NCBI RefSeq assembly: GCF_021028975.2
Contig: NC_059430.1
Span: 78,430,001-78,494,000, forward strand
Length of the DNA: 64,000 nt
Direction of reading: 5' to 3'
DNA from: Sphaerodactylus townsendi
Lineage: Eukaryota
The translations under genes and the position numbers were made by a program. Below the pieces are notes generated by a model. The model searched no databases. It worked only from the letters and a program-made list of their open reading frames with translations, and was not told where the DNA came from. Below, one piece after another: positions 1,071-42,800 of the stretch. Within the stretch, counting starts at the first letter, position 1. Every line of letters begins with the position of its first letter.

Positions 1071-3913
1071 AACAAGGGTCACAACAGTGACCATATACAC
1101 TAAAATCCATTAAAACCATTAAAACCATTTAAACAGCGGTCAAAACAATAACAATAGTAATGGCATCCCGTAACCCAATTCCTTTAAAACCACCCCAAAA
1201 AGAAGGGAGCGGCCGGACTCCTCCCTGAAATTAACAGTAAATATGCAAAAATAAATTATAAAAGATAGGGAGCAAAAGGGCCAAGGAGCAAAGCAAGGAG
1301 GGGGGGCGGGGGGCGCATTTACCTCAGAAGTTAGCTGCCAGAGACCAGGTCTTGCAATCCTAGCTTTGTGAGTTGACCAGATCCCACTGTATTTATTTCT
1401 AATGCTTGGGATGGAGACATTTTTATCAGCACATTTCTTGGGGAAATGTGGCAATGGCAGGCCATCCACTCCTCTTTGATCTCCGTGCAAGCAACAGGCG
1501 AGAGTGAGGTAAGTAGACACTGTCAAAAGAATTTCCTTTTTCATCAACAGAAACCATTGGAATCTCAAATCATAAAACTAATGTGTTATTTTTCTGGCTG
1601 GCACATAAAGAAAAAGTGGAAATTATTAAAATGAAATGCAGATTTCTGGAATAACTGAGATTTCCCCCCTATAAAAACAAGCAATTATTCAACCTACAGC
1701 TAGATAAATTAGAACTGAAATGGAGGCCCTGGAAAATCTATTTTAGAACAAAGTTAGTGTGTGGGTGGATATATGAACCATTAACTCTGTTTTTGTGTTT
1801 GTTTTTTTGTTAAATATCCCACAATTTCCCCCTACAGTAGCTCTCTGGAGAAAATCACTGTTTGCTTAAAGAAGTGTATGAAATCTTATGGGAAATCTCA
1901 AGATTTCTTACAGCTACAGATTTTTTTTCTCTCTCTCCCATTTAAGCTCTTTATACTTGTTCTTCGAAAAATAATGTAATGCATTCGTCCCATGACTAAT
2001 GACTAATGACTAATGACTTTTAAGTCTGGTTCAGGGGGTCATGTATTTCCAGCCTGGAGGACCACCTTCTGGAGTCTGATGATGTAACACCATGTAGATC
2101 TTTGAGTTCACAGAACAAAATAAGGAGCTGGTTTTTCCTGCCCCCTCAAAATATACAGAATTCTGAGACTGAAAAATAAATATAGCAATCCCTTCCATCA
2201 ACAAGTTCACACAAGGAGATTCCCATAGCAATTTTGTGAGGGAAATTATACTGTGGAATCGTATTCCCAGAATGTAGTAGACCCCTCGTGCCCTGACCTC
2301 TCCTATCAGTACTGTTTCTTTTTTGTTGTTGAGTCTAGTCCCCACAAATGCCAGAGAGGACAAGGGAAGAGAAACCCAGGCCTGTCAGGTAAGGCAAGAG
2401 GTCAAACAATTGGGATAGGGCACTGTGCAAGGCTAAGCAGCCGCTTCTTGAATTACCCAGAATTATAGGTGTTTTTCACAGGCATGTGAGAAACATCTGT
2501 CCATAGCTACAAGAAGGCTGACTGTCTCCTTTAAGGTTGGAAAAGGTTCAAGTAGCCAACACTTCTGAAAATACAACCCAAACACTATGTTTTATTATTA
2601 AGATCAACCAAAATGACATAATATACAAAGTGTCCTCTGGAACCCTTTATCAGGTTTAATGTTTAATAGGGTGGTGGAGGGAGATAAAAGTGTCTCATGA
2701 TGTTAAGGTTTTGTCTTGTCAGTATCCTGTGTAGAATGGTGAGCAGACCTGCAGAGTCATCATGATTCTGCATATGGTGTACTGGCATTTCATTCACACA
2801 ATGAGGGAATCCACCAGCTGTGGTCTGAGGGTGCATGATTTGTATGATCACAGAACATGCGAATTGGGTTTTGGTTCATGAAAATGGAAAGCCATTCTTG
2901 CATGGAAATTTCACACATTGACCAATTCATACATAATGTATTTGCACATATTAGGTGCATTGTGGGGATGCCTGGGCTCCTGTTTCACGTAAATGACACA
3001 ACAACATAACATTACAGAGCCTTAAAATGATGCTGGTATTAGGTAGCATGCTTGCCTTTCCTGGAAGAAGTGGTGGAATGGAGGCATATCAGAAACCCAA
3101 GCCTGACACCACTATCCTTTTAAAACTGCATATCTACTGCTCATTCTATGTATGATGCCAACAAGGTCAGCCTTCGTGGCCTAAGATATTTTTATTCCTC
3201 TTCACCTCTTTAAACATGAAGTCTGGGGAAGGGTTCTTGAGAGCTTGAAAGCTTTCGCATCACTGATCAATTGCATCCTTTTGTCTAATGTATGGTGTGG
3301 CTTTTGTTTTGGGATTTTCTGGGTTGATGAGATTTTCTGGGTTTTCTGGGCAGTAATTCTTAAAAGCACCTTTATACTATGGAGCTGTGCCAAGGTTCTG
3401 TTTCCATCCAGGCACTTGTCAGGCTAACAGTAAAAGATGCTACACTTTTCTGCTTCCTTGTAAAAATACATAGGTCAATCTTTATAAATCCAGCAGCAGG
3501 AATAATTTTGCACGAACACTTTCTATAAAATCCTTTAGTGAGATGTCAATTAGAAATAAAGGGAGAAATGTGTATGCCTGCCCCAGTAAAGTGAGTTTTC
3601 ACTGGATGATGTTACTTTTGTAATTATGGGGCTCTTTTTCACACATTACCTGAAGGCCATGCATGATTATCAGTTCTTGATCTTTGCTTTCTTATCACTA
3701 TCATCAGAAGGTGGCCCTAGACCTCAGACAGAGAAAATTATGGGGGCTGGCAAGGTGATCCTCCTGACTTTCCCAGTGGACTACAAACAGAATGTGTTCT
3801 TCCTTTAATTCAAATTAATTGGCCTTTGTCATAGGCATTTGTGAAGCAACTATTGACTGTAGACGTTTACATTACAATGGTCAGGACAAAATAGGCCAAA
3901 GATCTTAATCATT

Positions 3914-4097
3914 GGTTCTGGTGGGTTTTCCGGGCTGTGTGGCCGTGGTCTGGTGGATTCAGAGGATGAAGATGCCAACCACAGAAGATGCCAGCCACAG
4001 ATGCATGTTAGGAACAAAATCCACCAGACCACGTCCACGCAGCCCTGAAAACTCACCAGAACCATTTGAATCCGGCCGTGAAAGCCTTCAACAATAC
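3914..4097 (+). mobile_element. Penelope-like element terminal repeat with 5' inversion; hammerhead disrupted
   Basis: 3914-3959 is the reverse complement of about 4018-4063. Ends in the family tail CCGGCCGTGAAAGCCTTCAACAATAC. Flanked by the direct repeat ATCTTAATCATT (3902-3913, 4098-4109). Confidence 0.8.
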
Positions 4098-5478
4098 ATC
4101 TTAATCATTATTTCATTATTATTTATTTATTGAATAGCTAGTTAGCCAATTCCGAAAGATGAAGGAAGAGAAAGCAGAGAAGAACTGGCTGAGTTAGTTT
4201 CACTGCTGCCAGCTGATGCTTAGTCTGGGTGTAGCCAGAAATGCATACCCTTCAGCACAAGCCAAAGCCCTGGGCTCTCAGCCTGTGTCTCACAGACTGG
4301 GGTCTGTGTTATCTGCCCCATTGAATCAGAATATGTCTGTTTAAACTGTATTGTCTGTTTAAACTGTACTGACTGTTTAAATTGGTTGTTTGTATTGTAT
4401 TTTGGTATTTTCTGTATGCTGATTGATAGTGGAATTTTAAACTAAGTTACACACTTTTAAATCCGCTGAGAGGATTGCACTGCAAGGTCCCTCTGTGATA
4501 CAAAAGTCACATGAAATGCCCAAATAAGTAAATAAAATATGGTCAGGATTCATGCTGACAGAGGGAATGGAGAAGGTTTGGACTTTTGCCTCTCAAATAC
4601 AACTCCAATGCAATGTGGCAAATCACTATTGAAATACCCAAAGCAATTTGTAATATGGCTGTAGGAAATCTGCTGTTCAGAGATAGGCATGGGAGGCAGA
4701 TGAGTACAATATTCCCACTAGTTTGTGCAAACATTTTTATTATAGCACTAAAACTGTGCAATTCTCTCGCCAGCAAAGTTCCTCTCTCTCTCCCCCTTTA
4801 TCATTGTCTTCTGCCAGTGGGTGTAGACTTTTGTTGTTTATTTGTTTTGGCATTACCTTATTGACCCTTGTAATGGACTTCAAAAGAAAATGTGATTTGA
4901 AAAGTGTAGGTTTGTCTGAGGCATTCAGAATGAGGCATAAAGGCCTAAGAACAGGGGGAGCCACCTGATTGGCTGTGGCATCCTGGACTCTGGCTTAATA
5001 GCTGGATGATTCAGAGGAGGTTAGCTTTGTGATAGAACAATTTGAGAGGCCTTTGGACTTTAGAATTCCTGGAGTTAACATTTAGCTGCCTAACTGTGTT
5101 TAAAACAAAACATCTCTGAAGCAGGTAGTTCAGTCAAGGTGTGACTGGATTTATTGATATCACCCTGCCATCTGTGAAATGAAAGTGATAACATACACCG
5201 ACTGAGAGAAGTGGTGGAGGGGTTTATGGAGGGGCTAAGCTGAAGGGTCAGTAAGGAATATCTTCAAGTGAGGGAAGAAATCCTGGGTACCAGTTAGTTT
5301 GCAGTATTGGGTTTTGCTTTGTGTTTCCTCAGTAGAGTGTTTTATATTTTAGTTTGGGTTTCCTAACTGTGAAAGCTGAATGAGGGTACTTAGTATATGT
5401 ATTAAGTCTGCTAGAACCCTGTGTGTTTGAATAAGCCATTAGCCATTAGCCTTACACATAAGGAACGATACCATCTAA

Positions 5479-7739: not shown

Positions 7740-7919
7740 AATATTCCCTTCTCACTGGACACAGCGTGTAACAGACTTCCCTCTGTGATACACCTCTGAA
7801 GATGCCAGCCACAGATGCAGGCGAAATGTTAGAAACAAGATCCACCAGACTACGGCCACAGAGCCCAGAAAACCCACCACAATCAGTTGAATCCGGAAGA
7901 GAAAGCCTTCGACAATACA
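7740..7919 (+). mobile_element. Penelope-like element 3' terminal repeat with minimal hammerhead motif
   Basis: CCT-CTGAAGA(7796-7802)-TGCCAGCCACAGATGCAGGC-GAAA(7823-7826)-TGTT; ends GAAAGCCTTCGACAATAC like the other copies. 5' boundary approximate. Confidence 0.8.
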
Positions 7920-10306: not shown

Positions 10307-13300
10307 TACATACAAATCTAGTCTTTAAAAGCCATTCATATCTCACTGATGCCAACTTTTTCTGAGGGAAAATGCAGAATCAGTCTTTTTATTCTATATA
10401 TAAATAATGAAATGCTACTCAGATTGAAACAATGTTTCTTCTAGAAAGTGAAACAGATGACAAGGCAATTGGTTTGTTGGGTTGAATGACATCTAAATAG
10501 GCTTAAATGTATCTAGTAGTGACAGTGATGGTAGCAGTTTCCCTGTTATTTACTTTCAGTGCTGTGCTTGGTGCTGTACTGAAAGGGAATGGTTGTTTGC
10601 CTAAATGATCACAGATGATGCCCCCAATATTTACATAGGTATATCTGGTTGCTATTTTAGCTTAGCATTATTTTCCTAGATCCAGGCATAGCCATTTAAA
10701 ATACTTAATATATATTTGAGACCATATCCAGTTGGGAAAGTTCCTCTCTGTGCCCAGTTCCTCAGCCTCTTAAATACTTCCTTATTTATAATATATAGGA
10801 AAGAGATCTTATCTGCAAGCACAAAAGCTTGTATATACAGACTGGAGTGTCTCATTAAAATAAACAGGAATAGGACCGTCAAGAACCACTTTGCCCCTCA
10901 ACAAAGATTTCATCTGCCACTCTTTCAGTAAAATGCACACACAATGCTTGATCAAAACAGGCTTGCTGCTTCTATTCTCCAGTGGTATCCTTCTAAGCTC
11001 TCTGTGACCCATGAGTGATCGAGCCTTTTAGAATATGTTATCCCCCTCCTCCTTTGGCAGATCTGAATGGGGAGACCCAGTTCATGTGTGAATGGATCAG
11101 GATGCAGAACTGTAACATGAACAGGATTGATTGCAAGAGGATTGAAGAGCACAGCTTTTTATAAAATAGTCCACAGTAGAAAAGGCAGAAGAAAGGCAGG
11201 TACCATCAGAGGAAGCAAATGGCTGTCAAAAACTCCACTATGCGTATGAAAGCTTTTGAAATTCAAGAATAGTAAAAATGAAAAAAATAAGAACAGCTTT
11301 TAGGGTTAACTTGATAATTAAATTAAATGTCAGTTTTTAGCAGGTAATTATAAAATCTTTTTTTAAAAGTAGCTATGTTGACTAGTAGCAAAATAAAAAA
11401 TGTAAAGCTCCATATGTTTTATTAAAACCACTCTCTCCATAAAACACACAGCGCAGTATGCAAACTTTTGAGTTCTCCAGAGTTCTTCAGCAGGCTGGAT
11501 GTAAAAATGCAAAGGGTGGAGAGGTTCTCTGTATTCTTTGTAGAATGCTTTGATGTCTCCAGTGGGCACAGTATCTGGCAAATACCAGGTAAACTGTTTC
11601 CTGTAATAACATGATTCTGTTCCGCTTTACAATCACAATTAGAAATGGGAGGTTTCACAGAAGAGTTTGCAAATCCAAGTATTTGAATGAAACTGCAGAA
11701 ACTAATTTGGCTATATCTAACATGTTTTTCAAACAGTTTCATCCAGCCTTGCCGAAGCATGTGTGTTGCAGTTCGAGACAGCTGTTCTGTGGTCCTGGGA
11801 TGCCATGGAAGTCACTGGCCCAGCAGTCTGGACTGTGATCGATTTCCTGCAGATGAAGATGTATGTCTAGGATCCCTCAGCGAAGAACAGAAACACATTG
11901 TCAAAGGTACTGTCTGATTAAACATTGATTTTTCTAATTCCAAGGAGCTTATGGTAGCCTATGGATCAGGAACTGGGAAACTCAGTTTTGAATTCTCATT
12001 TTGTCAGGAAAACTTGTTGGGTGACCTTGACTTGGGCTAGTCACACTCTCTCCCTCTTAGCCTCAAGAACCTCACAGAGTTGTTGTGAGAACAGAATGGG
12101 ATTGGTGTTAGGCTGGTTGCATGGTTGTAGCTTAGTAGTATTATTTCCGAGCCTGTATTTAAGTATCTTCAGAGGATCCTCTGAAGATGCCAGCCACAGA
12201 TGCAGGTGAAATGTCAGGAGAAAATGCTACTAGAACTCAGCCATGCAGCCTGGAAACCACACAACACTCCAGTGATTCCAGCTGTGAAAGCCTTCGACAA
12301 GAATGTGGAAATGTTGTAGGTCACTTTGGATCCCCATTGATGAGAAAAGTGGGATTATAAATGAAGTAAATAAATAAAATAAGACTTTAAGAGAAGTGAG
12401 GCTGAGAAGTTCTGGCCCCAGGTCACTCAGCGAATATTACAGCTGAGTAGGATTTCAGTCTCACTTTCCCCAACCCTAGTACAGCAATCTGAACTGTTGC
12501 ACATCACTAGGTCTATATGTTTGGTACACATATATATATTAGCAGAGTAGAACAAAAGAGAGATTCTCAGTTGTTTTTTATATATGAGTTTACTAGCTAT
12601 AAAGGGAGGGTTACATGGAGATAATATAAGAAATTCTTTCTTTCCTGTTACACATCTACGTTACTGTATGTTTGGTTACATCTTGCTACCTAGCTGCTGT
12701 CTCACATAATGCCGTCTACCTCGTGTCTGGTGTCATGTCTGCTCAAACAAAGAAACAAAGTTAACTTTATAACTTCAGATGTACATACTCACTAGCATGT
12801 AAGCAATGGCTATCTCCCTGACCAATAGCTAATCAATAGATCAGGTCATAAACAGTGACTTCAGCAACTTGTTTACATACAGTTAACCCTTTTATAACTG
12901 AGTTGTGACAGATATTTGGAAAATCACAACACTGTATCAAATATTATATTGAAAAACACAGAGTATTTCCTCATATAAATGGGAAATAATCACATTAAAG
13001 CTAATGGTTTTAGCTTTAACATCTCCTTTTTTGCTAGTTTTCTACACGCGAAAGACTTGTTTTAAAATGTAAGTAGAATTAAGTATATGACCTAGTTCTC
13101 AGTAGAGTGAAATGGTTCACTCTAAAAAGAATGCTATCATGTGGCTTGCCTGAACATGCAGTTTTGTTTTCAGGGGCAAATCACATGTTATACGCAGAAT
13201 GTATATGAGAACATGGACAACTTAAATTTACTTAAGAAAGGTAGTTTCAGAAAGGTGAGAATGAAAGCCAAGAAGTGGCACAGTGAGATGTAGAAGTTGC

Positions 13301-17890: not shown

Positions 17891-18981
17891 CAGGGGCGTA
17901 CCTAGGCAAACTTGAGCCCTGGGCAAAACCTGAGTTTGATGCCCCCCCCCCCCACGGGTGGCCCCCACCATGACCAAACAATAATTTTTTCCACCAGGTC
18001 GTTTCAAAGTCACCATCACATTATAGAACATCCCCCAACTCACAAATCTGAACATAGCAATGGGCCATGCCACACAGTCGAAATAATATTTGGAAAACAT
18101 TTTTCAAAAATGCTTTCAAAATGTTTTATTACTGCTATGAAGTAAACATTTTGTATGGTGTGTTGTATCCAGTCCCCCCAATTGGGGGAAACAGCATCAC
18201 TTTCAATGTTATTTAGACTGGGGGGGCCCAGACTCCTCCCTTTTAAGGTGGATTTAAAAGGAGAATCTGGGCTCCCTGGTTTAAACAAGTGATGCTGGAA
18301 TCCACCCCCAAACAGCAATTTCATTTTTTTTAAATGGTGTTTAAACTGGGACCCTCAGATCTCTCCCTTGAAATCCACATGCCTAAGGGGTAGATTTAAC
18401 AACAACAACAACAACAACAACAAACCCTTTATTAGGGCACTCGAGAGAATAAAAAGAAAAGAAAGAAAACAAGCATTGGTGGGAAGGGAGTGAATTTTAA
18501 AAAAGAGAATCTGGGGAAATTTAGGGGTGCTCTGTTGTCAGGGGTGCAATTAGTTAAGATATAGCACCAAAATTTCATCAGAGGTGTCTTTTGTGAGACC
18601 CTTACTGATGATAACACCCAGATTTGGTGTGAAGTTTGTACCAGGGGGGTCCAAACTGTTATGGACCCCTCAAAGGTGTAGCCCCCCCATCTCCTATTAG
18701 CTCCCATTGGAAACAATGGAGGATGGGCACTCCCTTTGGGAGTCCATAACTTTGGACTCCCTAAACCAAACCTCACCAAACCTGGGTGACATCATCAGGA
18801 GAGTCTCCCAAAAAATCCCTGAAATTTTGGTGCTGCTAGCCTAAAATCTGCGCCCCCTGCAGGCCAAAAACGGAAAAACACTGAAAATACAAAATCCCTC
18901 ACAAACCTGCAATTTTCTCGCCCACCACAAGGTGGCGCCCAGGGCAGCTGCCCACTTTGCCCAATGGGAGGTACGCCTCTG
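17891..18981. mobile_element. Non-autonomous hAT element (1091 bp)
   Basis: TIRs CAGGGGCGTACCT / AGGTACGCCTCTG; perfect 8-bp TSD CTGGAGAG (17883-17890, 18982-18989); internal modules shared with 23645-24628 and 40610-41268. Confidence 0.9.
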
Positions 18982-23456: not shown

Positions 23457-26400
23457 AGGGTGAGGCCACGCTCCCACCCGCCCCTGGGGGCATGGCCACA
23501 GCTCCCCAAGCCCCTCCCCTGGCCTCAGTGATTATAAAAGCAGCTCCCCAGGGCCAGGGACGGCAGACTCCCCTGCCCTGCCCGCCCCTCCACTAGCTGG
23601 GCTCCCAGCTAATAGCTGGCAGTCCCTTCTCCCTCCCATCCAGGCAGAGGTGTAGCTAGGGAAAATAGAGCCCGGTGCAAAATCTGAGGTTTGCACACAC
23701 ACACCCCCCCCCATGGGCAGCTGCTGTGATGCTGGAATCCACCCCCAAACAACATCACTTTCAATGGTGTTTAAATTAGGGAGCCCAGATTCTCCTTTTA
23801 AATCCATCTTAAAGGGAGAACCTGGGGGCCCCAGTTAAAACAACATTGAAAGTGCTGCTGTTCTGGGGTGGATTATCCCCCACCCTGAAATAGCATCACT
23901 TTCAATGTTTAAACTGGGCACCTCAGATTCTCCCTTTAAATCCATGCCGAAGGGATGGAGTTAAAAGAAGAATCTGGGGAAATTTTTTTGGGGGGGTGCC
24001 TGCTGTCAGGGGTGCAATTGTTAAGCTAGCAGCACCAAACTTTCAGGGTATCTTTAGGAGACTTCCCTGGTGATACCACCCAGGTTTGGTGAAGTTTGAT
24101 TCAGGGGGTCCAAAGTTATGGCCCCTCAAACGTGTAGCCCCCATCTTCTATTATCTCCCATTGGAAACAATGGGGGATGGGGCACCCCTTTTGGGAGTCC
24201 ATAACTTTGGACCCCCTGAACCAATATTCACCAAACTTGAGTGGTGTTAGCAGGAGACTCTCCTGATGATGCCACCTAGGTTTAGTGAATTTTGGTTCAG
24301 GAGGTCCAAAGATATGGACCCTCAAAAGAGTAGCCCCATCTACTATTAGGTCCCATTGGAAACAATGGGGGATGGGGCACCCCCTTTAGGGGTCCATAAC
24401 TTTGGACCTCCTGAACCAAACTTCACCAAACCTGGGTGGTACCGTCAGGAGTGTCACCTGACGATAGCCTGAAATTTTGGTGCTGTTAGCCTGAAAACTG
24501 CGCCCCCTGCAGGCCAAAAAATGAAAAAACACTTTAAAATACAAAAAACTCAAAAACGGGCGGGCGGAGCTTTGGACATGCAATGGGGGGAGGTTGAACC
24601 CGAGAACCCCCCCTTACCTACGTCCTTGCGAAGTTCTCCATTTTCCTTATTGCCTTTTTTTCTTCCCAATTACCAGCCAACCTACCACAGCCACACAGCC
24701 TGGAAAAGCCACCACAACTACCTTCATCTATTCCTGTCCTTCTCTCCCCCTGCTGGCAGACCCAGGAAAAGTGTTGACTTGTATTGTGGATACAATCATT
24801 GGCCTGGGTTGTATAGGTAGTGAGTTTCAGTGGTTGTCAGTGGGCTTGTCCCCAGCATCCTCCCCCATCAGGTGATGTGACAAGGAGAAGGATGAGAACT
24901 TTTCCAGCAATAGTTTGACTTCTAATTTATAGAAATGTAAGCTTGGAAGGCTCAGCAGCAGCATTGTTGTGGTTGTCCAGAAAACTCCAAAATGAACATA
25001 GAGAGTTCAATGTGCATTCTTTTAATAAAATTAGACATTGCTTTGATTATTATTATTTTTTTGCAGACTAGGGACTATCTGTTCTCATTTTTTTGCAGAC
25101 TAGGGACTATCTGTTCTCATTTCCATTTTGTGGATCTATTAATCATATATGCTGTGGTTCAATTTGAAATTTATATATGAAAAGCAAAAGTTCCACAGCT
25201 CTCTTTCTCCAATTTGCAGTTCAGCCTAGCCTAGCCGAGAGCATGTGCCAGGTCTGAAGGTGAGACTGTTTGAACTCAGTCTGAGCTCATAAACATGCCT
25301 GTTTTTTGAAAGAAAAATGGATTGGGACTCATTTGTAGGAACCCCCCCCCCCACACACACACACACTGTGATGCACCTTTTGCTCCTAGTAGAAACCAAA
25401 AATAATACCTCATGATGTCGCTCTAACCTAAGGGAGGTAAAAATCAGTCCTCTGTATTTTCACTTCTTTAATGTTAAATGCAATCACAAACAGTTTATGT
25501 AACTCACTTTATTTTCCTGTCCAGCACTTAAGACACACAATTATATACTCAGGTTGCCAGTCCCCACCTCCATCCCAAGAGACAGGAAATCCTCTGCCCC
25601 TGGTTCTTATTTCTGGCTGCCACTTGGAGTAAATAAAATGGCCTTTGGGCTGATGTCATTTCTTGGGAAATCCCAGAAGCGGTGAAAGTCTTCTCTAGGA
25701 ATTGCAAGAAATACTGTGGTTTTCCAACATAGTTCCTGGTGATTCCTAGGTAAGATATCACTTCCAGGTTTCTTCAGAACTGACATCATGCCATCAGCCC
25801 AATGACCCTCACCGTGTGCCTGTCCACTGGTCTCCCGCTGGTTGTTAAGCCATTCCTGGTAACCCTAATGCACACTCATCTGTTCAACTACCAACTCATC
25901 TGTTCAGTATAGGGATAGTTTTGTATCTATGGTTCAACAAAATAAATGTAAGACCTTAAGAGAAACTTCAGACCTTTGTATCTAGTTACATGCTGTTATT
26001 TCTTCCCAGTAGGGTAGCGAATACTGGGGAAATATCAAAAATAAATAAGGTAAAATGAAGCAGGATAATATGTAGCCATTATTTTATTTCCTAGGGACTG
26101 CACTGCAGTGTGAAATCTGCACAGGCCTAGGCCACAACTGTACTGGTAAGATAGAGACCTGTCCTCCTGATCATGACTTTTGCGGCACCACATTGTTTGA
26201 AAGTAAACATGGTAAGCAACTGAGATAAAATTTCTTTCTTGCTCAGATTTGGATATGTTTTTAAGGTTTTACGTTTATAATTTGAATTTTTAAAACCATA
26301 ACTACCTGAAATAGTAATATTGTTATATCTGTTTAAGGAAGGATTGGTTAAATGCATAGCCCTACAACCATTTCCCCAGAAATCCTGGGGAAAGTAAAAG

Positions 26401-36874: not shown

Positions 36875-39800
36875 ATGGTTTCTGGAACAGCGTTGGTTTA
36901 CGATGATGAAATGACCAGCCATAAACTACTTTGGGAGGAGTAAGTCATTTTGTTTTTCTAGCTTGCAGTTTGAATTATGGCAGTCATTTCTTTTAAAAGA
37001 AAAGAGTTTTAAGTAGAATCCTGTTTTCTGCTATGTGATGTTCAACTGAGTGTCAGCTTTTGGGTCTCTTACAGTGTTGTCCCAATAAAGCTTTCCCGAG
37101 AATAAGTCTCATTGAACAGACAGCACATAAAAAGCTTGAAAGTGTTAGGTCTGAGTAGGCCTGTATAGATTGCTCTACTAGACTACAGTGAGGCCTGTCT
37201 ACCTCAGCTCTGCCTTATTTGACCTTCTAATATGGTCAAAGGTCTGTTTTTATGGTTTATCTTTTTGTTCTGGGCTGGAATTTTAATACTTTTAATTAAT
37301 ATTTCTTCATTTTAGTTATTATCTTTAAAAATGACTAAACTGAGGCTGTTGTACTTTGGTCACATTATGAGAAAAGAGTCCCTAGAAAAGAAAACATAGG
37401 AAAATTGAAGACTGCAGGAAAAGAGGAAGACCCAACTTGAGATGTATTGACTATAAAGGAAGCCATGGCCCTCTGTTTGCAAGATCTGAGAAGGCTGTCG
37501 AAGGCTTTCACGGCCGGAATCACTGGGGTGCTGTGTGATTTCCGGGCTGTATGGCCGTGTTCTAGCAGCATTCTCTCCTGACGTTTCGCCTGCATCTGTG
37601 GCTGGCATCTTCAGAGGATCTGATAGTTGGAAAGGAAAGCAAGTGGAGTTTTCAGCCAGAAAAATCAGCAATAGCAGAACACATAATAAACCAACCTGGA
37701 CACAGAATATTATTTGAAAACACAGAAATTCTGGACCACTCTGACAACCACTACATCAGACTACACAGAGAAGCCATTGAAATCCACAAGCACATGGACA
37801 ATTTCAACAGAAAGGAAGAAACCATGAAAATGAACAGAATTTGGCTGCCAGTTTTGAAAAACACTAGAGTCAAGACAGTGACTAATCAGCTCCACACAGA
37901 CACAGGATGACTAAAGACAATCAAAGGGAACAAAGGCCAGACTACTTCTATTCCAATACCTCACCTATTGACCTTGGTATCTCCATTGTTACTCACATGC
38001 TACACTTCATGGTTACTCTCTTGCCAGGCCATTCCCATTCAGATGCCCTCACCTATTGACCTTTACTCACAGGTATATATACTCCACTTGCTTTCCTTTC
38101 CAACTATCAGATCCTCTGAAAATGCCAGCCACAGATGCAGGCGAAATGTCAGGAGAGAATGCTGCTAGAACATGGCCATACAGCCCAGAAACCACACAGC
38201 ACCCCTCTGAGAAGGCTGTTCGATAGACTATTGTGGACATTAACTCATAGGCTCTCCATAAGTCAGAAGCAACTTGAGCACACTTAACAGACCTATGAAG
38301 TTTGGTTTTTACTGTTTTTATTTTGTAAACCTTGGTTGCTGGAGAGCTGGCATAAAATTTTGTAAACAAATAAACATAGCAATCCTATACAGAATTTGTG
38401 CCGTCAGGTTGCAACTGACTTACTTATGACAACCCAGTAGGTCTTTTAAGGCAATAGACCAACAGAGGAAGTTTGCCAGTGCCTTCCTCATCATAACAAC
38501 CCTGGTATTTCTTGGTAGTCTCCCATTCAAATACTAACCAGTGTCAACCCGGTTTAGCTGCTGAGATCTGATGAGATTAGGCTAGGCTGGGCAATCTGGT
38601 ATTACATTCTGCATTCTTATATTCTAAGACTACTGACCTCAATAGAAGGGTGTATTTCCTACTCAGAATTACACCCTTCTATTGAAATCAGTGGTCTTAG
38701 AATAATGAAATTCTGCTTATAGTGAACAGACATGACAGACATTATGTTGGGGAGCCAGCATTCTCAAACTCAGCATGGCCCAATTGGACTCTAGAACAAA
38801 ACATAATTGAAGTGCCTCTTCCCACTGTGTCATGATTCTGAGCTGAATTGGGCCTTGGATTGCTTGGGAACACTAATTCCCTGATACAGTTCCCTAATAC
38901 GGGCTTTATTTGTTGTCTTGTTTAGCCCCATTTGTGCCATTGAAATCCCAGAGAGGCTTTCTTCCTGCTTCAACAACCTCCAGCGCTACAGTCTGGTTGA
39001 ACGATGCCTGGCTGTACCTGTCCGAGAAGGAACGGAAGATGAGATCACATTGGTCCACAGGTCTGCTGTAATGGATTTCCTCCATGGTTCATATTAGTGA
39101 AATAATAAGAAAGTCATTTGCTCCTCGGTTTAATGATTTTTTTGTTCAGTGGACCTACAAAATATAAAAACAGTATCTTGTACAACATATATCATACATC
39201 CAATTCAGTTAAATAGAAAAAACATATTTCTAAAACCTGTAACATTTACTATTCATAATTATACATTCATAATTTTACTGCTGCTGATGTCTTAAATCTA
39301 ATTTTTCCCGATAGTTCAGAAAGAGAGAGAGCATGGTGTCCGCTCCATACACATCTCCTGCGTTCAATGTAGCAAAATGCAAAGTGATGCACATAGGGGC
39401 AAAAAATCCAAACTTCACATACACGCTACAAGGGTCAGTTCTATCAATCACAAACCAGGAAAGGGATTTGGGCGACTTAGTGGATAGTTCCATGGGAATG
39501 TCAACTCAATGCATGGCAGCTGTGAAAAAGGCAAACTCTATGCTGGGGATAATTAGGAAAGGAATTGATAATAAAACTGCAAGGATTGTCATGCCCTTAT
39601 ATAAAGCCGTGGTGCGACCGCACTTGGAGTGCTGTGTTCAGTTCTGGTCGCCACATCTCAAAAAGGATATTGAAGAGATAGAAAAAGTGCAGAGAAGGGC
39701 AACGAGGATGATTGAGGGATTAGAGCACCTTCCTTATAAGGAGAGGCTGCAGCGTTTGGGGTTCTTTAGTTTGGAGAGGAGACATCTGAGGGGGGATATG

Positions 39801-42800
39801 ATTGAAGTCTATAAAATTATGCATGGGGTAGAAAATGTTGACAGAGAGAAATTTTTCTCTTTCTGACAATGCTAGAACCAAGGAGCATTCATTGAAAATG
39901 CTGGGGGGAAGAATTAGGACTAATAAAAGGAAACACTTCTTCACGCAACGTGTGATTGGTGTTTGGAATATGCTGCCACTGGAGATGGTGATGGTCACTA
40001 ACCTGGATAGCTTTAAAAGGGGCTTGGACCGATTTATGGAGGAGAAGTCGATTTATGGCTACCAATCTTGATCCTCCTTGATCTCAGATTGCAAATGCCT
40101 TAGCAGACCAGGTGCTCAGGAGCAGCAGCAGCAGAAGGCCCTTGCTTTCACATCCTCCATGTGAGCTCCCAAAGGCACCTGGTGGCCTCTGCGAGTAGCA
40201 GAGTGCTGGACTAGATGGACTCTGGTCTGATCCAGCAGGCTAGTTCTTGAGTTCTTATGTTCTTATGTTACTAAACATCTCTTGCACCTTACTTTTTTCT
40301 CCCGGATTTTCTTACATATTGTGATTTTATTCATCAGCACAATATGCCATGTTAATGCAATAGGCTTGGCTGCTTGCAAGCTTCTGTTTGTGCTGCCACA
40401 AAAAGATTTTTAAGCACATACTTTTTCTTTGTGGTGCATCTTCAGACAAAATACTTAGGTGAGCTTTCGTTCCTTATTAAAGGGCCTTAAAGTTGAAATA
40501 TACCATTTGTTATTTATAAGAAAAGAATATGGCTTTAGGCCAATTGCGCTTGGGTGGGGAATGGCTGAATAGAACATACCCTCTTGTGGGAAACAGGGAA
40601 ACCTACACAAGGTCAAAACAGAAAATTAGGCCCTTTAAGTCTTTCTCCATAACTTTGGCCCCCCTGAACCAAACTGCACCAAACCTGGGGAGTATCATTA
40701 GGGCAGTCTCCAGATGATACCCTGACATTTTGGTGCCAATACATCAAAAAATGCGCCCCCTGCAGGAACATCCCAGAAATTTGCCCAAGAATCTTTGTTC
40801 TGCATTGAGTTTTCTGCATTTCTGTCAATGGGGGTTGCAGGCTGCGGGGGGTGGGGGGGGCATTTCTGAAGGCACAGTTTCAAAACTTTCAGGGTCTCGT
40901 CAGGAGACTGCCCTAATGATACTCCCCAGGTTTGGTGCAGTTTGGTTCAAGGGGGCCAAAGTTATGGACCGTGCCCCCATTCCCCATTCTTTCCAATTAG
41001 AGCTAAGGAGATGGGGCTACCCTTTTGAGGGTCCATAACTTTGTCCCCACTGAACCAAACTGCACCAAACTTGGGGGGTAGCATGAGGACAGTCTCCTGA
41101 TGAGACCCTGAAAGTTTTGGTGGCGATATGTCTAAAAATGCACCCCCTGCAGGCACCAGTGACCTGGTGTAAAAAAAAATTTGGGGTCATGGTGGAGTGG
41201 CTGCCCATGCGGGGGGGCATCCAACTCAGGTTTTGCACAGGGCTCCAGTTTGCCTCGTTACGCCCCTGAATCTTACAATTTGTTTTAGGCTTGTAACCTT
41301 GAGACTTGTTTGAGCTCTCAGTTAGTGGGTGTCTGTTTGAGCCATCTGGGGACTATCACTGAGGTTCAGAAGCAGTTGCTTGTGTTTTGGGGTCACTATC
41401 ACTTGACTGTCTGGCCACCATAACTGATGTGTTCTTCACCTGAACTAGCTTTTAAGCATTGAAAATATTTTCCTCTTTCAGTTTGAATTACTTGGAGGTT
41501 GTGAAAAATACTCAGAATATGGATGAAGAAGAACTCCACAAAGTCTCGACTAATTATGATGCTGTTTTCTTTCATCCAGTATGTATACATGATAATGGTA
41601 ATTTTATATCAGAGTTCATATGTCTTAACCTTCCTATGTGGTTTTCTGCATTTTGAATTGCTTTTCCTATTCAGCTTAGTAGCACGCTGTCAAGAAACTA
41701 GTAACAGACTGCATATTGGGGAATCTTGTGACTTTTTCACTATGCTTTCATTGTAAGAGTTGCAAGGAGCAAAATCACAGCAGGGCTATCTGAATGCATG
41801 GATGTGAGCAACTTTAATAGCAACAGTTCCTCCCTGTTCATCAATCCTATTTGCCTGCTTACAAATCACTCACTGTTAACTGGCAAGTAGAAGCTGTGCA
41901 TTCTGTGCAATTAAGGTACAAGGCTGCATCATAGCCATCTGGCCTGTAGTTCAGTCTAAGCCACATTTATCGACTGATGCCAGTTTTGCACTTCAATTGA
42001 GACTAGTTCTCTGCCACACTGAAGCTCAGAAAGGTGTAGCAAACACACTGGGTGACCCATCATGCACACTCAACCCTATGTACCTCACAAGGCTGTTGTA
42101 GGAATACAATGTAGGTGTGGAGAACAGTTTAAGCCACTTTGGATGCCCATTGGGGAGAAAAATGAAGTTTAAATTAAGTAACTAAATAATGCTTATTGTT
42201 TGTACCACCGTGGTTCTCTTGGAGCTCTGTCTTGAAGGTCGGTAGTTCTCACTTTCAGGCCATGGAATGTCCCCTGCAGCCACAGTGGAATGCTTTAGAG
42301 AAGACCCTGCACATTGAGTACAAAGCTCAGTCCCATATTAATTGAAGTGAGCAGCATAGAAATTGAAAGCTCACCTAAAATGCTACAAGCTGTTGTAAAG
42401 CGAATAGTGCTTAACTGAGAGATTAGCAAAGGAGATTGAGAGATGGCCAAAGATGACCAAACAAGTTCTTGCAGTTTAGTGAACACCTTGTAGTCTTAGA
42501 GGTAAAAACTGTCATCGTAGCACTTTTTCATTCATTGACCTTTAATGGCATAAGTAAAATTTTACATCAAGAGCTCAGTTAAAATACAGTAGGCAAAATT
42601 GAAACAAGGAATCCAGCAATATCATTGGTCCGACTTTTACTAGTATCATTTAGAAACAGTAATTCCTAAATTTGAAGTAGGTGGGAGGCTATTAATATGG
42701 AGTTCTATATATTGGCTTCTCTGAACTTTATGTTTAGTAGCACTTAAAAGATTTTAATTTTTTAATTTAGTTTATTTATAGCCTACCTTTCTTACTTTTA

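Follow-up and report, generated by a model that had tools for sequence, protein, structure and literature searches.

The insertion in the HDAC10 intron is itself an ordinary one, and the host-defence signal that had been proposed for it failed testing. We regard as highly probable the reading in which it is a 5′-truncated, head-to-head insertion of Penelope/Poseidon type, whose hammerhead ribozyme in sense to the gene likely acquired its G8>A change by neutral decay. Sequence-intact minimal hammerheads occur by the thousands in introns with no orientation penalty detected, which argues that they are near-silent without the element protein or a partner. A peak of insertion ends, one base wide, at the predicted cut site would moreover offer an assembly-only readout of in vivo ribozyme activity, applicable to any Penelope family.

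HDAC10 lies on the + strand (exon match, E 6e-9) of the window, by which we mean the whole stretch of 64,000 nucleotides that was analysed, and the host gene had thus been named correctly in the preliminary description. Its intron, with coding exons upstream (about 36875-36939) and downstream (38926..39061, +), holds a head-to-head, 5′-truncated insertion of Penelope/Poseidon type with a 14-nt target duplication. The duplicated site, TCTGAGAAGGCTGT, is found at 37485..37498 (+), where its last 3 nt are shared with the element end, and again at 38206..38219 (+). We compared nine further copies of the repeat that hosts the insertion: in three, both flanks are contiguous and hold one copy of the TCTGAGAAGGCTGT site, and in the remaining six the right flank is unmatched. 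The claim of a single insertion with a target duplication stands. The claim that it is nested in an RTE fragment holds in so far as the target is an older, dispersed repeat (37385..37484, +, resuming at 38220-38290); from the end of its ORF, we tentatively take the repeat to be RTE/BovB.

From left to right, the insertion consists of an inverted pseudo-LTR arm with a tail (37496..37649, −), in which lie the intact ribozyme and the ORF's first 37 codons; the C-terminal 86 codons and stop of a GIY-YIG endonuclease (37650..37910, +); the 3′ untranslated part and the start of the pseudo-LTR (37911..38080, +), with TATATATA at 38074-38081 as a putative promoter element; and the sense pseudo-LTR arm without a tail (38081..38205, +). 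The tail, of ~29 nt (37496..37524, −), is found on the minus arm only. This tailed arm ends ~112 nt past its ATG at 37608, and the sense arm ~84 nt past its own at 38122. Compared over 37520-37649 and 38081-38210, the inverted arms mismatch at 5 of 125 positions: the left arm has one private change and the right (sense) arm four, of which three are transitions at CpG and the fourth is G8>A at 38121. The stop-free frame (37650-37907, 86 aa) begins downstream of the GIY and YIG motifs, which were lost through 5′ truncation and are seen only in longer copies elsewhere; arms and frame agree with the earlier picture of mirror-image hammerheads flanking a stop-free GIY-YIG C-terminal frame. As separate observations, the inverted arms (window 37520-38210) are predicted to form ~125 bp of dsRNA in the pre-mRNA of HDAC10, which would be a likely substrate for editing, and 48 head-to-head pairs of this kind were counted in 1.76 Mb of introns. 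The same HDAC10 intron also contains a 5S rRNA-like sequence (38490-38607, −; Rfam, 45 bits), which is likely a 5S-derived repeat head or pseudogene.

The ribozyme of the left arm (37576..37618, −, antisense to HDAC10) is an intact minimal type I hammerhead composed of a 4-bp stem I, CUGAAGA, a bulged U, a 3-bp stem II, GAAA and a palindromic ACGU. Set against the minimal type I core (C3-A9, G12-A14, A15.1-U16.1, H17, a bulge before stem II and a palindromic 15.2-16.2) it is complete, as first described, with C17 at 37580 and a GUC cut predicted between 37580 and 37579. Its counterpart in the HDAC10 pre-mRNA (38112..38154, +) is decayed and departs from this core at two positions, G8>A at 38121, which is not a CpG change, and C15.2>T at 38147, which is (ACGT>ATGT); the preliminary description had recognized both the non-CpG G8 lesion and the damaged ACGU. 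At the subfamily A control rate (2.1%), a given arm would carry one or more non-CpG core changes with a probability of 19%, and either arm with one of 35%, and the G8>A change in HDAC10 is thus not above chance.

Five hammerhead motifs are indeed present in the 64-kb window (at 3984, 7796, 12181, 37614 on the minus strand, and 38116); only one of them is intact, and that at 3984 is without its GAAA half. The sense pseudo-LTR copy in intron 2 of sizzled (12175..12299, +), a gene that also lies on the + strand (exon near 11.8 kb, E 4e-23), has a short inverted remnant immediately upstream, and its ribozyme (12177-12219) shows two changes of CpG type, its core being free of non-CpG changes, consistent with the CpG decay suggested for it earlier. 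An apparent minus-strand motif at 12144-12172 was rejected, being the short inverted remnant running into unrelated sequence. An Rfam scan at the gathering threshold gave no hammerhead matches. Among ten closely related copies, compensatory change was seen in 0 of 11 predicted pairs of stems I and II, and the predicted fold mispairs the core; upon cofolding of two ribozymes, the catalytic dimer was not the minimum-energy fold, a result that carries little weight either way.

Longer copies of the element extend upstream of the window frame via GVYxIPCSCGQVYIG, that is, a GIY-YIG motif with two cysteines between GIY and YIG (CCHH), into a reverse transcriptase (read by eye). In one of them, L233, reverse transcriptase leads into endonuclease in a single ORF (one 373-aa frame), the window copy being truncated there, and another, L238, matches RVT_1 (E 1.3e-12); Pfam returned no GIY-YIG matches, the endonuclease fragment included. 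The CX2-5CxxC linker finger, given as a Neptune feature in the accessible part of PMC8557442, was not seen by eye between reverse transcriptase and endonuclease in L233, L234 or L238. Judging from the available portions of PMC8557442 and PMC3846280, published elements typically carry pseudo-LTRs, either direct or inverted, and a tail of 30-40 nt on one end. On these sequence features we provisionally place the element in the Penelope/Poseidon clade of Penelope-like elements; the element class and ribozyme anatomy proposed at the outset, with inverted tailed pseudo-LTRs here and a reverse transcriptase/endonuclease frame in longer copies, were right. A non-LTR retrozyme, made of non-coding repeats in tandem whose ribozymes all face the same way, was ruled out by the inverted arms around an endonuclease fragment.

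The family is very large and dispersed, as had been anticipated: the identical 43-nt ribozyme has 8,991 exact copies genome-wide, and the number of terminal pieces, extrapolated from introns, is ~146,000. The HDAC10 copy belongs to subfamily A; in the older subfamily B (window 7793-7914 and 3984-4093) the majority cut site is GUU rather than GUC and the downstream sequence differs. One subfamily B insertion in the window (3900-4110) is rearranged: it contains a short piece in inverted orientation, the start of its ribozyme is duplicated and 7 nt of the core are lost, and its ends carry an apparent ATCTTAATCATT duplication. As far as the available text of Cervera and De la Pena 2014 (PMC4209133) describes them, the minimal hammerheads of metazoan Penelope elements share with ours the conserved core, the bulged base before stem II, G10.1-C11.1, the palindromic 15.2-16.2 and the missing stem III, and they too number in the thousands per genome and occur in pairs on opposite strands, spaced 100-700 bp; in contrast, stem II is short here (3-4 bp) with a long loop, and heterogeneity is stressed there whereas 8,991 copies are identical here. 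Animal non-LTR retrozymes, in the accessible portion of their description (bioRxiv 10.64898/2026.07.22.740005), likewise have pseudo-LTR-related hammerheads, and selection against their genic copies has been asked about; however, they form tandem non-coding arrays with dimers in cis, whereas our element has an inverted pair and an endonuclease fragment and, owing to this inverted rather than tandem arrangement, only one ribozyme per strand.

Likened by its described features, the Poseidon element of Anolis carolinensis (PAc; Frangieh et al. 2024, PMC11167929, available in part) has in common with the present one an ORF that begins at the start of ribozyme stem II, an element end ~112 nt into the ORF here and 111-118 in PAc, a tail lying between two start sites, a reverse transcriptase followed by a C-terminal GIY-YIG domain, and a cut site that is read through in most copies; it differs in having the cut site 26 nt past the ATG instead of 29. 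Of the 48 head-to-head pairs in our intron sample, introduced below, 42 have a tail on one arm alone and none has it on both, a pattern that agrees with reverse transcription of the anole element starting at two internal sites, as given in the accessible part of that paper. Drawing on the same work and on our end statistics, we infer a mechanism in which the element protein would nick both DNA strands ~14 nt apart and reverse transcription would initiate at two internal sites, ~84 and ~112 nt into the ORF; the two initiations would then yield two cDNAs, one with the tail and one lacking it, that are joined head to head.

The preliminary description had further suggested that selection disarms ribozymes lying in sense within host transcripts, and this part of it did not survive. 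Our intron sample comprises 180 stretches (1,764,500 nt) inside 17 gene spans and has sense and antisense arms and no intergenic arm; an effect of about twofold lies within its error. Gene strand was taken from Pfam exon matches (CUB, spectrin) only, and nested or antisense genes may be included. A large CUB gene region on C6, where equal-score CUB exon matches lie on opposite strands (98308800, +, and 98325109, −), suggests an inverted duplication or an assembly fault and was excluded from the set. All alignments were trimmed by 4 bases per end ahead of counting. BLAST recovered 142 pieces, 69 in sense and 73 in antisense (p 0.80), and a profile search 152, of which 76 were in either orientation; a depletion of sense copies is ruled out by these counts. 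Among the 78 copies spanning the ribozyme, it is intact in 11/42 sense versus 8/36 antisense copies (p 0.79). There is thus no orientation bias in number or intactness, and, as detailed below, neither an excess of changes at G8 nor a sense excess of core decay in subfamily A. CpG changes are present in 53 of the 59 non-intact ribozymes of the sample, and copies would decay chiefly via the two CpGs within their own core. Our literature search found no orientation test for Penelope copies.

The comparison of non-CpG core decay by orientation that had been called for could be made in the intron sample, and it gave sense/antisense ratios of 1.3-1.5, with the excess confined to subfamily B. Pooled over the BLAST alignments, such changes amount to 24/501 in sense versus 11/462 in antisense (p 0.06), and the age-matched ratio is 1.52 (permutation p 0.17). 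When we repeated the test with profile alignments, using substitutions only and copies with at least 5 core and at least 10 control sites (55 sense, 49 antisense), the age-matched ratio was 1.30 overall (p 0.40). Subfamily A shows 2/253 sense versus 8/228 antisense changes (BLAST) and an age-matched ratio of 0.97 (p 0.96, profile). In subfamily B, a subgroup chosen post hoc, BLAST gave 22/248 versus 3/234 (p 0.0001, unadjusted) and the profile alignments 18/259 versus 7/245, with an age-matched ratio of 1.61 (p 0.21). There may be a modest sense excess of core decay in the older subfamily B.

Such an excess is what would be seen if host selection slowly favoured core mutations in sense-intronic copies, mainly of older subfamilies, with the HDAC10 G8>A change among them, an explanation that we consider improbable. 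It can draw on the BLAST counts for subfamily B and on the G8>A changes of the intron sample, of which there are three, all in sense copies and all in subfamily B. It would also be in keeping with the depletion of tandem, dimer-competent retrozymes from Xenopus introns (bioRxiv 10.64898/2026.07.22.740005) and with the finding that a ribozyme in an intron can reduce mRNA output (PMC10919898), as the accessible parts of these sources report. However, the subfamily B signal falls to p 0.21 once profiles are used, and subfamily A is without signal; core changes private to one member of a pair number 13 in sense and 10 in antisense (profile); the 24 sense core changes observed are fewer than the 33 expected from a base-matched control; and to the unbiased counts and intactness is added that G8 is not changed in excess genome-wide.

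More core changes can in fact be expected in sense copies without any selection, since purine transitions are favoured there and 7 of the 10 non-CpG core positions are purines. At non-CpG control sites, purine transitions amount to 56/1466 in sense versus 37/1528 in antisense copies and pyrimidine transitions to 48/1239 versus 74/1316, a strand asymmetry with p 0.003 overall and p 0.04 within pairs; G8>A is itself a purine transition and so belongs to the class favoured in sense copies. Transcription-linked mutation asymmetry of lineage-dependent direction is known in vertebrates, and the available part of PMC2927911 does not state a G>A excess like the one seen here.

For the genome-wide test at G8, we used as a unit a 34-nt CpG-free stretch of the ribozyme and as a control the loop II G, which stands in an equal AGAT context. 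The stretch is found unchanged 9,016 times, with its sole change at G8 106 times and with its sole change at the loop II G 126 times (95% CI of the G8/loop-G ratio 0.64-1.10), and G8 as a selected hotspot is ruled out by this control. The same data bear on whether the G8>A or CpG change was inherited from the source element or made during reverse transcription, in which case it would be uninformative on the host locus. That the arms are separate cDNAs, with four private changes in the right one and one in the left, would agree with such an origin; nevertheless, three of the four changes are CpG transitions typical of DNA decay, and G8 variants are rare (1.2%) and scattered across all large contigs at the control rate, so that we deem it very unlikely.

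With neutral decay as the preferred reading, the question is why selection would be weak. According to the accessible text of the respective papers, single minimal hammerheads (monomers) showed no in vitro cleavage (PMC4209133) and the anole Poseidon ribozyme requires added protein (PMC11167929). The minimal ribozyme likely cuts only with help, from a dimer and/or the element protein, and then no more than a few percent of its templates. A ribozyme standing alone in a host pre-mRNA would therefore likely be near-silent, and near-silent copies would come at little cost, hence the weak selection. The HDAC10 copy would be even more silent, given the predicted end-to-end pairing of its sense ribozyme with the inverted arm: in the predicted fold of the pre-mRNA, 42 of its 43 positions pair with that arm at a probability of at least 0.88, the sole unpaired position being 38121.

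Indirect evidence that the ribozyme has probably been active nonetheless comes from where insertions end. Of the 69 subfamily A pieces in the intron sample, 29 begin 5-11 nt before C3, ~30 nt past TATATATA, starts that we interpret as run-off where an uncut transcript begins; among all 142 pieces, 3 have their first base precisely at the cut site. When the whole genome was searched for short inverted junctions, 81 insertions emerged. In the 50 of them that were listed, whose ends were judged by eye, the scissile bond unambiguously accounts for 45 of the 100 arm ends, compared with 8 and 7 for the two adjacent bases and no more than 9 for every other position; this tally leaves aside nine arm ends with microhomology spanning the cut site. 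In 17 of these 50 loci both arms begin at the scissile bond, eight of them blunt and the others with A/T-rich filler or a same-base restart; examples are C2:59490026-59490061, C3:166011707-166011742 and C4:8559893-8559928, and inverted insertions of this kind occur genome-wide. A second search found 103 copies that begin at the cut site following three non-consensus bases. Among the 100 listed, 22 show stem I microhomology with the partner arm and 10 are small insertions in whole copies, which leaves 68; the control position four bases upstream gave 51 copies, 24 of which resemble microhomology joins that end further down. By rough scaling, ~250 cut-site ends against at least 9,000 whole ribozymes amount to a few percent.

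The peak likely records in vivo cleavage of this few percent of templates, and on balance we favour the view that hundreds of insertions were copied from RNA cleaved in vivo at GUC, often in both arms, leaving a genomic fossil record. We lean towards cleavage rather than a polymerase stop or a second start site. Specifically, the pile-up of 5′ ends at the cut site could instead mark an initiator-like TCAG used as a second transcription start, or a stop of the reverse transcriptase, which we think possible but doubtful. The main 5′-end cluster likewise has a TCAG motif, and PAc differs from our element in that its RNA-seq, as reported in the available part of PMC11167929, has no reads ending at the cut site, whereas we see a genomic 5′-end peak there. 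Against these alternatives, the peak is one base wide, is reached after copying the entire 3′ strand of stem I and lies ~75 nt from a TATA-like box. An extra G is the expected cap signature at transcript starts, and the fillers are A/T-rich with no surplus of this G (by eye). If cleavage is indeed responsible, pairs of cut-site arms would be expected where a dimer of the element protein lets two RNAs form a dimeric hammerhead; alternatively, such a dimer may copy one cut RNA twice. In the openly accessible literature that we searched we found no earlier report of a cut-site end peak, and Cervera 2014, in its accessible text, remarked on the absent in vivo evidence for cleavage (PMC4209133).

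Elsewhere in the window, another repeat family has direct and inverted copies near each other, at 18684-18878, 24009-24528 and 40621-41156.
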